Shown: positions 30,989-36,387, numbered from the stretch's first letter. The stretch is DNA of 64,000 nucleotides from Candidatus Eiseniibacteriota bacterium (GCA_963717935.1 CAVQXP010000004.1:1280001-1344000), one strand, 5' to 3'. Notes: a model not told the origin generated them from the letters alone. Made by a program: numbers and translations.

Positions 30989-31058
30989 GGCCCCGCTCGC
31001 GCCGCGGCCGCGGCCGTCGTCGTCGTCCCCGGCCGTCCCAGCCGCCGCTCCGCCGCTC

Positions 31059-32615
31059 GTGGTGGAGCTGGCTCAGCGGCCTGTTCGTCCGGCCCCGTAC
31101 GGCCGGCGGGCGCGCCATCCGTCGCGGCGCGGCAGCGAGTCGTTCGACCAGCAGGAGGCCCGCGCCATCGCGGAGTTCTCCCGCCACTTCCAGATCACCT
31201 TCCACGATCCGGAACTGCTCCGGCTGGCGCTCACGCACCGCTCGTACCTGAGCGTGACCGGCATGGGCCCGCGCGAGTCCAACGAGCGGCTGGAGTTCCT
31301 GGGCGACTCCGTGCTCGGCCTGGTGACCAGCGAGTACCTCTACCGGCAGCTCCCCGACGAGCACGAGGGCCAGCTCACGAAGACCAAGTCGCTCCTGGTC
31401 TCGAAGGCCATCCTGTTCGCGCAGGGCGCTGCTCGATGGGGCTTGGCCGCTTCGTCCTCATGAGCCACTCCGAGGTCGAATCGGGCGGCCGGCAGCGGCT
31501 CTCGATCCTGGCCGACGCCTTCGAGTCGGTGCTGGGCGCCATCTACCTCGACCAGGGCTTCGAGGAGGCGCGGCGAGTTCATCGAGTACTGGCTGCTGCG
31601 CGGCTCGCGCGAGATCGTGGCGGACAAGCGCCACCGCAACTACAAGAGCCAGCTGCAGGAGTACGTGCAGAGCACGTTCCGCACGCACCCCGTGTACCGC
31701 ATCCGCAGCCAGATGGGCCCGGACCACTCGAAGCTCTTCCTGGTGGAGGTGATGGTCGGGCGGCGGGCGTTGGGTGAGGGGCGTGGCACCGAACAAGAAG
31801 GAGGCCGAGCAGGCCGCGGCGCGCGACGCCCTGGAGCGGGTCGAGCGGCCCGGCGCAGCGCCGCGGCGAGGAGCGCGGAGCCGCGCGAGGCGCGAGCGGA
31901 CCGCGAGCCGCGGGAGGCGACGTGAGCCGCGGGAGGGACGCGAGCCGAGGGAGGGACGTGAATCCCGCGAGGAGCCCCGCGAGTCCGGCGAGCCGCGCGA
32001 GGTGCGGAGGAGCCGCGGCCGGATCGCGAGTCCCGGGGAGTCCGCGAGGCACGCCGGGAGCCGCGCGAGGCCCCCGTGGTTCCGGCGGCGCCGGAACGCG
32101 AGTCGGCCGGCTCGGATCGCGAGGGGTTCCGCAAGGCGGCGGGGTGGCCGCGGCCGCCGTGGGCGGGGCGACGATGAGGCCGACTGCGGCCGAGCCGGTG
32201 GTCCGCGCGCGTCGAGCCGGTGGTCGAGCGGATTGGGCGGCCTGCGGAAGTGGAGCCGCCTCTCAGCGTCTACGAGGAGGACGACATCGAGGAGATCGGC
32301 CGGCCGGAGGGGCCGCTCGACGAACGCCACATCGACCCCTTTGGCATTGGTGCCGCCGAGGAGCCGGTGCTGGCGGTGGAATCCCCGGATCTCGTGGACG
32401 AGCCCTGGATCGAGGTGGATCCCGCGCCATCCTGGGAGCCATCCGACGTCCGCCAGGAGGAGTCCGCGACCGATCGCTTCGAGGGCGAGCCCGGGGCCGA
32501 GCCGCAGGCCGAAGAGGGGGCCGAGGAGGACGCGCCAGGTCCGGGTGCGACGCCGTCGAAGCCTGGACCCGTGGCTGAGCCGCGCTACGGGCGCCGCCGC
32601 GCGCGCCGTCGCTGA
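31059..32615 (+). CDS. rnc: Ribonuclease III with long low-complexity C-terminal extension (frameshifts; both ends uncertain)
   Basis: ALTHRS, NERLEFLGDSVL, LADAFESVLGAIYLD, NYKSQLQEY, GPDHSKLF, KKEAEQAAA, followed by R/E-rich and acidic coding-like sequence to the stop at 32615. Confidence 0.85.
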
Positions 32616-32626
32616 CGGACGAACCG

Positions 32627-32670
32627 AAAACACGGACGGGCGGCGAGGACTCCTGCCGCCCGTCCGTGTT
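32627..32670. terminator. Intrinsic terminator, 16-bp stem, with the U4 tract on the minus strand
   Basis: AAAACACGGACGGGCGGC-GAGGACTCCT-GCCGCCCGTCCGTGTT. Confidence 0.8.
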
Positions 32671-32886
32671 GTTGGCGCCGGGACGGTCTCCCGTGCTGGA
32701 AGACCGTGGGGGCCAACTGCTCCCCGGGGACGTGGGGAGTGAGCGGGCCCTGGCGCTTCGGTATTATGAAAGCGAGGGGCTTGCGCCCCTCGCTTCAAGA
32801 CTGTCGTCACGCACATTCAAGACAGGCCCCTCGGATCTTCCGTGTCCGTCATGCGGTGACGACAGAAACTGAATCAGTCTGTCGTC
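32627..32886 (-). ncRNA. Candidate sigma54-dependent small RNA (~260 nt; possible ~120-nt short form)
   Basis: Lies between a -24/-12 promoter and a terminator. It has several hairpins, including an 11-bp stem with a GCAA tetraloop at 32770-32795, and no credible ORF. Confidence 0.6.
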
Positions 32887-32897
32887 TCAGTCGTATC

Positions 32898-32912
32898 GCA
32901 TACCGGATGCCA
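32898..32912 (-). promoter_or_regulatory. sigma54 (-24/-12) promoter
   Basis: Minus strand TGGCATCCGGTATGC (GG-N10-GC). Confidence 0.7.
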
Positions 32913-33033
32913 TCGCCCGAATCCGTTGGCGCTGGAATCATATCTTGCTCTCCAGCAACGGATTAGATGGCGTGATCCTGGGGCGCTTCGAGGATCCTGG
33001 CCGGAAGCGACTGCGGATGCGGTTGAGACGAAT

Positions 33034-33131
33034 GCGACATAGTGTCGCGTATTCGGCGATTGCGATTGTGAACTGCCCAGAGCCACTTCCTGAACCGGGA
33101 CAGATTGGCGTCGGTTCGTGACAGAATGTCG

Positions 33132-33132
<1 letters not shown>
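33034..33132. promoter_or_regulatory. Palindromic enhancer-like sites GCGACA-N3-TGTCGC
   Basis: Perfect site at 33034-33048, near-perfect GTGACA-GAA-TGTCGC at 33118-33132, and degenerate GGGACA-GAT-TGGCGT at 33097-33111 (21 bp from the second). Confidence 0.62.
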
Positions 33133-34556
<1,424 letters not shown>

Positions 34557-34651
34557 GGGCTCCCATGATGCGCGTGGGCCTCCCGCGGCGCAAACCGCGG
34601 GACCGGGGGGCAGGCTGGCCGCTGCCGCGCGGCGCGTGCTAGGCTCTCCGG

Positions 34652-36387
34652 GTGATGGCTTCCGTCGCGCGCGTCCTCAGCCTCATCCTCCTCGCGGCCG
34701 CGACGGCGGGGCAGCCCTCAGGGGCGGCCGAGGCCCCTGCCGTCCCCGGACCTGGCGCTGCCGTGCCCGGTGCGGGGGCCCCAGCCGTGGGCCCCGCACC
34801 GGGCGACCCCGCGGCGCTCAGCCGCTACCTCTCCGGGCGGCTCCTGGAAGAGCGCGGGATGGAAGTGGACGCGCTCGAAGAGTACCTGCAGGCCCTGCGC
34901 CTGGACCCCGGGCGGTCGGGATCGAACTCCGGGTGAGCGAGGTCGCCGCCCGGCTCGGTGAATCGCAGCGCTCTCTCGAGTACGCCGGGCGCGTGCTGGA
35001 GCACGACCCCGGCAACGCACGGCCCTCTGGCTCCAGGGCAGCGCGCTGTTCAGCCTGGGCCGGCCGTGGGAGTCCCTGGAGGCGCTCCGGGCGGCCGTGG
35101 CCGCCGATTCGCAGCAGGCGGACTACTGGAGGACGCTGGCCCGCGTGGCCGAGTCGCTCGATCAGGTCGAGCTGATGGCCACGGGCTGGCGCCATGCCGT
35201 CGAACTCGACGACGGCGACGGCGAGGCCTGGTTCCAGTTGGCCGCGGTCGAGGCCCGGCGGGGCCACTTCGAGGCCGCCGATTCGATGCTGGCGGAGGCC
35301 ATGGCCCTCAATCCGGTGCGCCCGGGCGCGCTGTTCCTCGCCGGCTGGATCCAGGATGGCCTCGGGCACCCCGCCGAAGCCATGGGGCTCTACCGCCAGC
35401 ATCTGGAGCGTCCACCCGGGGGACCAGGCCACGCGCCGGCGTCTGGTGAACCTGCTCGCGGACGCGGGGAGGCATGCCGAGGCCTACAGGGAGGCCGTCA
35501 TCGTGCGGCGGGCGCAGCCCGACGACCCGGACGCGATCGGCGTCGAGGCCGACCTGGCGCTGCGCGTCGGTCATGTGGCGCAGGCCGACGAACTGCTCGA
35601 TCAGCTGATCGGGAGCCGATCCGGCCGACCCCGCGCGCGTGGCGCAGGCGGCCGGCATCCTGGTGCAGCGGGGACGCGGGCGCGAGGCCGTGGCGCGGAC
35701 CGAGGACTGGGCCCGGAGCCGCACCGCGGACTATCGCGGCCCGCTGCTGGTGGCCCAGGTCCGCTCGGACGACGGGCGATACGGCCGGGGCCGTAGCGAG
35801 CCGCGCGGCGCGCCGTCGAGATGGTGCCCGGACTCGCTGACGCCCCGTTTCGTGCTGGGTGGGCTGCTGCAGGCGTATGGCCGATTCGCCGCGGCCGAAT
35901 CCGTGTGGGCGGATCTGGCGCACCGCGGCCGGGCTCCCGTCCGGGCGGGGCTGCAGCTGGCCTATTGCCGCGAGCCGCTGGGCGACGTGGACGGCGCGGT
36001 GAGAGCGGTCCGCGACGTGCTCGCCCGCGAGCCCGACAACAGCTCGGCGCTCAACACCCTGGGCTATCTCTTCGCCGATCACGGACCGCGATCTGGCCGA
36101 AGCCGAGGACCTGGTGCGGCAGGGCCCTGGCGCAGGAGCCGGACAACGGCGCCTACCTGGACTCGATGGGTTGGGTCTACTATCGGCTGGGCCGGCTGGC
36201 CGAGGCACGCCGGGACCTCGAGCGGGCGGTCGAGCTGACCAACGGGGATCCGGTGGTCAGGGAGCACCTGGGAGACGTCTACAAGGACCTGAACCTCATC
36301 GAGTTGGCGAGGGAGCAGTACGCGCGGAGCCTGCGCCAGGACCAGGGCAATGCCAGGGTCCGGGCCAAGCTGTCGGAGTTGCGCTGA
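34652..36387 (+). CDS. Exported tetratricopeptide repeat protein (several apparent frameshifts)
   Basis: Signal peptide and TPR-like helices; C-terminal ALNTLGY...AYLDSMGWVYYRLG...EHLGDVY. Confidence 0.82.

Follow-up and report, generated by a model that had tools for sequence, protein, structure and literature searches.

Sequence comparisons strongly support the conclusion that the intergenic region between an NtrC-family sigma-54 activator gene and the RNase III gene rnc, in a 64,000-nucleotide stretch of Candidatus Eiseniibacteriota DNA (the window), encodes a real and undescribed small RNA (sRNA) family, whose regulatory type is already known and which is so far confined to one Candidatus Eisenbacteria family. 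Read along the minus strand, the 3' end of the activator gene is followed by three palindromes, a sigma-54 promoter, a GC-rich structured stretch and a hairpin with a GCAA loop, beyond which lie another structured stretch, a distal hairpin, a UUUU tract and finally the end of rnc. A sequence-only reading of this region had proposed an undescribed sigma-54-dependent sRNA beside a two-component-type activator. All of the motifs that it named are present, at frequencies far from chance, and its proposal is supported by the promoter, the palindromes, the conserved synteny, the joint absence of RNA and activator from some genomes, the covariation of the fold, the lack of an Rfam match and the presence of rpoN. 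The RNA gene, its fold, its promoter, the geometry of its enhancer and its coupling to the activator gene are all borne out by comparison of related loci.

Of 40 relatives searched by blastn with positions 33160-32600, 24 belong to the same family and 14 of these gave matches, while none of the 16 from outside the family did; the shared part was always query 295-391, which corresponds to window positions 32866-32770. A strict gapped pattern derived from the alignment matched 35 times among 185,579 species genomes. Twenty-five of these matches are found in records titled Candidatus Eisenbacteria and eight in other MAGs with the same gene order, while the remaining two are chance matches inside coding sequence and were discarded. 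A covariance model (R1) built from 35 distinct sequences was positive for 32 of 59 family genomes, with one strong copy in each; in 91 further genomes, drawn from 16 other families of the phylum, it returned a single weak match (32 bits). As expected for a new RNA, no Rfam family matched: searches against Rfam 15 gave no match at the gathering threshold in the window or in 12 related loci, and a search of the region with E-values up to 10 returned unrelated microRNA/sRNA noise only (E-values of at least 0.18). In the full-text literature, nothing was found on sRNAs or sigma-54 regulation in Eisenbacteria; one CsrA paper dealt with another subject.

The conserved core of the RNA (32866-32770, minus strand, ~97 nt) is represented by 35 distinct sequences, all from one Candidatus Eisenbacteria family, and consists of a long interrupted helix (~22 bp) and the putative terminator hairpin SL2. 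In helix P1, positions 32865-32856 pair with 32810-32801, so that CUGUCGUCAC pairs with GUGACGACAG, followed by four to five more inner pairs. Helix P2 is formed by GGACA(C)GG and CCUGUCU. The 13-nt apical loop contains the sequence CCGAGGGGCC (32834-32825), which is invariant in 35 of 35 sequences. SL2 begins 4 nt past the long helix and corresponds to the GCAA-tetraloop hairpin recognized in the sequence-only reading; it spans 32796-32769 and comprises 12 pairs. In the predicted short form of the RNA (32886-32765, minus strand, ~120 nt), a variable leader of ~20 nt precedes P1.

Covariation among relatives, which had been named as a check on the RNA, is seen as double-sided changes at 16 of 32 pairs. 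In the alignment of the 35 sequences, 95.3% of cells are paired; none of 500 shuffles reached such a high value and slid controls remained at 40-54% paired. Five covarying pairs are located in P1 and 10 of 12 in SL2, whereas P2 exhibits almost none. The window RNA itself folds with z = -5.7. As U-G pairs are frequent in P1 (25 of 35 sequences at one pair) and fit only the minus strand, the conserved fold can be assigned to this strand and not to the rnc strand. Applied to the 35 sequences, RNAalifold preferred a different inner fold with two small hairpins, which shows no double changes and is less stable than the P2 fold in single-sequence folding. P2 is considered tentative, since it is too conserved to covary and RNAalifold proposes another inner fold.

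The 5' part of the RNA had been read as a hairpin starting exactly at the predicted +1. Its two arms, GACGACAG (32886-32879) and CTGTCGTC (32865-32858), do exist and are complementary, but the hairpin is not conserved. Instead, CTGTCGTCAC pairs with the downstream GTGACGACAG (32810-32801) in the MFE fold and in 35 of 35 relatives, and the 5' hairpin was rejected as an RNA fold, being outcompeted by P1 and having an upstream GACGACAG that relatives do not conserve. In this genome, GACGACAG occurs twice, at the predicted 5' end (32879-32886) and as the 3' arm of P1 (32801-32808), and the upstream copy is absent from relatives. Because of this duplication, either copy could pair with the 5' arm of P1. 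The alignment also suggested a possible switch, in which the 3' arm of SL2 would pair either with its own 5' arm or with the loop sequence CGAGGGGC, identical to that arm. The idea was dropped because the two are identical only with a stem that reads GCGAGGGGC, found in some members of the genus.

The predicted sigma-54 (-24/-12) promoter, TGGCATCCGGTATGC (32912-32898, minus strand), has its GG and GC elements spaced 10 nt apart, within the pattern TGGCA-N7-TGC. This element had been annotated from the window alone, and its conservation among relatives strengthens the assignment: 32 of 37 non-redundant loci carry the motif TGG[CT]A-N7-TGC on the same strand, no more than 200 nt upstream of the core, and the remaining 301,482 bases of the loci do not contain it once. 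Two of the 37 are chance matches, which leaves 35 true loci, 32 of them with the promoter. The five misses consist of these two chance matches, one locus whose upstream sequence extends to only 74 nt, and two one-letter variants (TGGCC... and ...TGA). The distance between promoter and core varies from 36 to 165 nt among the loci and the leaders are not conserved. From the usual spacing between -12 and +1, transcription would be expected to start near 32886. A gene for sigma-54, rpoN, was identified in the genome (210.8 bits for its DNA-binding domain).

Three enhancer-like palindromes precede the promoter. UAS1, GCGACATTCTGTCAC (33118-33132), lies directly 3' of the expected stop codon of the activator gene and agrees with 8/8 template positions; UAS2, ACGCCAATCTGTCCC (33097-33111), is located 21 bp from UAS1; and UAS3, GCGACACTATGTCGC (33034-33048), agrees with 8/8 positions. 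They had been described as three GCGACA-N3-TGTCGC palindromes. Three sites do exist, but only UAS3 is a perfect palindrome, as the right half of UAS1 reads TGTCAC instead of TGTCGC and UAS2 is weak, with 6/8 template positions. Among 34 related loci, a GNGAC-N5-GTCNC palindrome is found at about -214 from the promoter in 29 (range -228 to -202) and at about -125 in 28 (range -137 to -110). A weaker palindrome at about -194 (-200 to -188) shows at least 7/8 matches in nine and at least 6/8 in 16 of the 34 loci. The palindrome density amounts to 8.7 per kb upstream compared to 0.71 per kb elsewhere in the loci, and the palindrome positions are fixed relative to the promoter despite the variable distance between promoter and core (34 loci). 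The palindromes of the window, at -220, -199 and -136, depart from the relatives' -214 and -125. In related loci, the first palindrome starts at the stop codon of the activator gene. The genome contains 109 sites with the promoter pattern, and palindromes of this type occur upstream of only one of them, the promoter described here.

Between UAS3 and the promoter, an A/T-containing element (32939-32970) of the form AATC-N2-3-TTGC...GCAA-GATA is kept in the genus and reads TAATCCGTTGCTGGAGAGCAAGATATG in the window. Similar AA(C/T)NCGTTGC strings were seen by eye in other genera. The element may represent an IHF-type bending site.

The activator gene (33134-34556, minus strand) has several broken frames in the ORF list of this assembly. 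The intact, 475-aa orthologue at the related locus L031 exhibits Response_reg, Sigma54_activat, AAA_lid_14 and HTH_8 domains, i.e., a receiver (REC), an AAA+ domain with its lid and a Fis-type HTH, and a GAFTGA motif is present in the translated activator. The L031 orthologue passed none of the NCBIfam equivalog cut-offs, including those for GlrR and LuxO. Of the 35 true loci, 33 have an activator gene directly upstream of the RNA and on its strand; in the other two, upstream sequence is lacking. This synteny is kept while activator identity falls to 42-47%, and the gap between activator gene and core measures 258 nt or more in relatives. A divergent tpr gene comes first in the locus, followed by the activator gene, the RNA, convergent rnc and fabF. 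In a sister genome, the wider neighborhood consists of plsX-fabD-fabG-fabF-rnc on one side and of genes for a TPR protein, an ECF sigma factor and an HtrA-like protease, followed by aroB, on the other. No kinase gene is adjacent at the locus. In R1-negative family genomes with the locus available (a 7.1-kb stretch), the activator is also absent from the locus in four of four cases and tpr abuts rnc; the contig of a fifth genome ended too early. From this arrangement we infer that synthesis of the RNA would depend on the adjacent activator.

Compared to the L031 orthologue, the activator gene in the window carries 11 small indels, and both the activator gene and rnc are spread over several reading frames. 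Extra letters at 33618, 33636 and 34268, as well as at several places in rnc, are missing from RNA contigs of close relatives. These indels are probably assembly errors and the assembly itself indel-prone; if the frameshifts were real, activator and rnc would be pseudogenes and the RNA module would be dead in this genome. Three metatranscriptome runs each contain 5-6% of the words of 31000-35000. Their contigs, which derive from relatives and are 90-95% alike, cover parts of rnc and of the AAA+ region of the activator gene and leave 32742-33277 uncovered, and they are uninformative on transcription.

At the 3' end of the core, SL2 is predicted to act as an intrinsic terminator, ending the RNA near 32765. 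Good U runs follow SL2 in other genera (e.g., L010 and L048), whereas the tail in the window, UUUCAUAAU, is weak; a strict terminator scan identified none in 32300-33300. Because of the weak U tract in this genus, the RNA is also likely to exist in a ~260-nt form reaching to the rnc terminator (32627), and both a ~120-nt and a ~260-nt form are plausible here on the basis of the sequence. The additional structured extension (32764-32680, minus strand), which would be part of such a read-through form, folds with z = -8.55 into a three-way structure, in which an outer stem GCGCC.GGG/CCCGGCGC surrounds two hairpins. This structure is common to four of seven distinct genus sequences, with six of 36 pairs compensated, while L004, L005 and L007 differ.

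The extension is followed by a long, GC-rich distal hairpin (32669-32631) and a UUUU tract (32630-32627). Another 16 nt past the UUUU tract, the stop codon of rnc is reached in reverse complement (32615-32613), and the hairpin adjoins this stop codon in all seven distinct genus sequences. It probably terminates transcription in both directions, serving rnc as well as the distal end of the sRNA. The earlier description of a terminator at this position is correct as to hairpin and UUUU tract, but the hairpin, 16 nt after the rnc stop codon, is primarily the terminator of rnc. The convergent orientation of sRNA and rnc, likewise noticed from the window alone, recurs in 30 of 35 loci, the other five lacking downstream sequence.

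The rnc gene (31059-32615, plus strand) is frameshifted in this assembly and was recognized from its ORFs and from the domains of the L031 orthologue, a 587-aa ORF with Ribonucleas_3_3 and dsrm domains. In the L031 ORF, RNase III carries a C-terminal extension of ~260 residues with Arg/Glu-rich repeats, followed by an acidic tail that ends in RRRxRRR. The extension corresponds to 31774-32615 in the window and to 2020-2812 in L031. Such an extension seems to be general in this Eisenbacteria family, since a distance of 800-1300 nt separates the sRNA from the end of the catalytic and dsRBD parts in most related loci.

A dedicated module of an enhancer-binding protein (EBP) and an sRNA, in which the RNA acts in trans and presents its loop as the recognition surface, appears to be the probable function of the locus. 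In this model, the NtrC-type response regulator (34556-33134) would presumably be phosphorylated by a kinase and bind UAS1/UAS2, just past its own stop codon, and UAS3, ~85-90 bp further. The bound activator would then activate the sigma-54 RNA polymerase at TGGCA-N7-TGC (32912-32898), yielding a non-coding RNA that starts near 32886 and ends near 32765 (or 32627). The interrupted helix would present the 13-nt apical loop with the invariant CCGAGGGG, and the G-rich loop would contact a partner in trans. Its most likely partners would be C-rich mRNA segments, paired without Hfq, as has been proposed for the SL1 loop of Pxr. Base-pairing through the loop, argued from this analogy, is put forward as a tentative mode of action that may well prove incorrect.

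Hfq was not found in the genome (93% complete). Searches for targets of the loop gave the following results. Among exact complements of the loop of at least 11 nt in its own genome, the only one of at least 13 nt is the sRNA gene itself, and 19 of 323 complement sites are located near putative starts, which is about the chance level. Complementary k-mers showed no enrichment near starts and a duplex target scan was uninformative in this 71% GC genome. No 11-nt perfect loop complement is common across the genus: the 11-mer complement occurs 13 times in eight genus genomes, seven of these matches are the sRNA gene itself, and it is the sole copy in four of the seven genomes with a match. Feedback on the activator mRNA was considered and rejected, as complementarity to its 5' region was no better than background (mean percentile 0.52, 31 loci). 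One secreted peptidase-like gene (856 aa; G000:C2:137955-140560, minus strand) reads GAGGGG, then GGCCCCUCG, then AUG, so that its Shine-Dalgarno sequence abuts a 9-nt complement of the sRNA loop; chance would give such sites.

The main rival to base-pairing is the titration of a protein, either CsrA via an ACGGA motif in or next to the loop or another RNA-binding protein. No conserved complementary target was found for the invariant 10-nt loop, the genome encodes CsrA while Hfq was not found, and GGA is located beside the loop in most aligned sequences, where the inner fold proposed by RNAalifold would expose it in a loop. Known CsrA sponges, however, carry many GGA-type sites, whereas each copy of this RNA has one. 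Moreover, in the better-supported fold, 30 of 35 sequences pair one of the two G residues and 33 pair the other, and L048 has CUGAAG at the GGA position. Titration is regarded as rather unlikely, though less so than a more speculative reading, in which the two-component system has one Hfq-independent RNA as its only output and the CCGAGGGG loop mimics a Shine-Dalgarno sequence, which unmasks ribosome-binding sites or binds a ribosomal or RNA-binding protein. In the case of unmasking, the loop would capture C-rich, anti-Shine-Dalgarno-like segments that mask ribosome-binding sites, which would lead to activation and not to classical anti-Shine-Dalgarno repression. We consider this mimicry doubtful; if true, the uncultured phylum Eisenbacteria would have in this RNA its first defined riboregulator.

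Other alternatives concern the gene itself rather than the partner of its loop. With ~16 sigma-54 activators encoded in the genome, promoter and RNA could be real but driven by another activator, the neighboring gene being merely adjacent. This is improbable given that adjacency persists in 33 of 35 loci at such low activator identity, that RNA and neighboring activator are jointly absent in four of four genomes, and that the palindromes start at the activator stop codon and are peculiar to this one among the sigma-54-like promoters of the genome. Slightly less credit still is given to the possibility that the structure is no independent transcript but belongs to the 3' UTR of the activator mRNA or to the terminator region of rnc. 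The structure does lie downstream of the activator gene on the same strand and the strict scan detected no terminator-like site between the two. A conserved sigma-54 promoter with a fixed enhancer is nevertheless located between gene and RNA and is kept while the region from promoter to core varies in length and sequence, and the rnc strand is excluded by the U-G pairs. A very small protein gene under the control of this promoter is hardly credible. In this window, ATG 32851 opens an 11-codon frame and ATG 32816 a long frame, but no small ORF has a common start and frame across the 35 sequences, L034 contains no ORF above 12 codons, the core carries 1- and 2-nt indels, stem substitutions are compensatory, and the 452-aa frame is antisense to rnc. 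The earlier statement that the region contains no credible ORF consequently holds by comparison of the 35 sequences; the window alone is uninformative in this respect, since 1-nt indels throughout the assembly make any ORF-based reading unreliable. The dedicated EBP-sRNA module remains the preferred reading.

Further sigma-54-like promoters were observed near activator genes of the same genome. At G000:C4:85263-85779 (minus strand), another activator gene is followed by two such promoters ~520 nt apart; no coding-like ORF lies between the first promoter and the second, and G-rich runs occur after the first. This arrangement may represent a second activator-RNA module. At G000:C4:20231 (minus strand), a promoter is located ~700 nt past the AAA+ region of another activator and no coding-like ORF was found in the next 1.5 kb, which makes a further non-coding target possible. 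At G000:C4:1883312 (plus strand), a promoter lies just past an activator gene and ahead of a type IV pilin-like gene (MFRSQKGFTLIELMIVV... N-terminus), an arrangement of the classical PilR type.

The RNA described here is the first well-supported regulatory RNA for a candidate phylum without a cultured member. Its whole cis-regulatory apparatus, comprising activator, three enhancer sites whose helical positions are fixed, sigma-54 promoter, covarying fold and terminator, is readable from sequence. The module is compact, consisting of the activator gene, ~250 nt of control DNA and an RNA of ~120 nt, and could be reconstituted in a laboratory host, making it tractable for studying the signal and the targets of single-output two-component systems.

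The layout of activator gene, enhancer, sigma-54 promoter and sRNA is known from Pseudomonas, where CrcZ is encoded downstream of cbrB. The resemblance of the Eisenbacteria locus to cbrB-crcZ, to which the sequence-only reading had drawn attention, is confirmed at the level of this layout. CrcZ is ~400 nt long and acts via repeated A-rich Hfq/Crc-binding motifs, whereas the Eisenbacteria RNA measures ~120 nt, is G-rich, has no Rfam match and belongs to a genome in which Hfq was not found. GlmY/GlrR and Qrr/LuxO likewise combine sigma-54 promoters and binding sites for response-regulator EBPs with sRNAs encoded beside the regulator genes. The Eisenbacteria RNA shows no Rfam match to GlmY/GlmZ or Qrr and its activator scores below both NCBIfam cut-offs, for GlrR and LuxO. 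The GlrR site is TGTC-N10-GACA; here, the half-sites are GNGAC and GTCNC and are separated by 5 nt.

A similar organization exists in myxobacteria, where, according to PMC5568312, Pxr is encoded downstream of nla19/pxrR, after a ~262-nt intergenic region that holds an enhancer and a sigma-54 promoter. In both systems, the sRNA gene is situated directly 3' of the gene for a sigma-54 response regulator (PMC5568312), and both RNAs measure ~110-120 nt and have multiple stem-loops (PMC5568312, PMC5684412). The conserved SL1 loop of Pxr is stated to be essential for function in Myxococcus xanthus, which is without Hfq (PMC5684412). The two systems belong to different phyla and differ in the downstream gene (rnc here, an NADH dehydrogenase gene in myxobacteria) and in the number of stem-loop domains (two here, three in Pxr), and the published 26-nt Pxr SL1 probe does not match the window at up to three mismatches. 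Judged by neighbors, fold and SL1 probe, the RNA appears to fall outside the Pxr family.

For the Desulfovibrio vulgaris EBPs DVU0653 and DVU0679, the only target listed in the pertinent part of a regulon survey is an ncRNA located immediately downstream (Kazakov et al., 2015; PMC4641369). Such single-target EBPs parallel the sole palindrome-bearing promoter in the present genome, although they belong to another lineage, are likened to this system by arrangement, and concern ncRNAs that are also predictions from comparative genomics. The Eisenbacteria locus adds to the growing evidence that the placement of an sRNA gene directly behind that of its sigma-54 activator recurs in phyla distant from one another. 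As read from its sequence, the locus fits the EBP-coupled sRNA module known from Pxr/PxrR, CrcZ/CbrB and the DVU0653-type systems and belongs to none of their RNA families.
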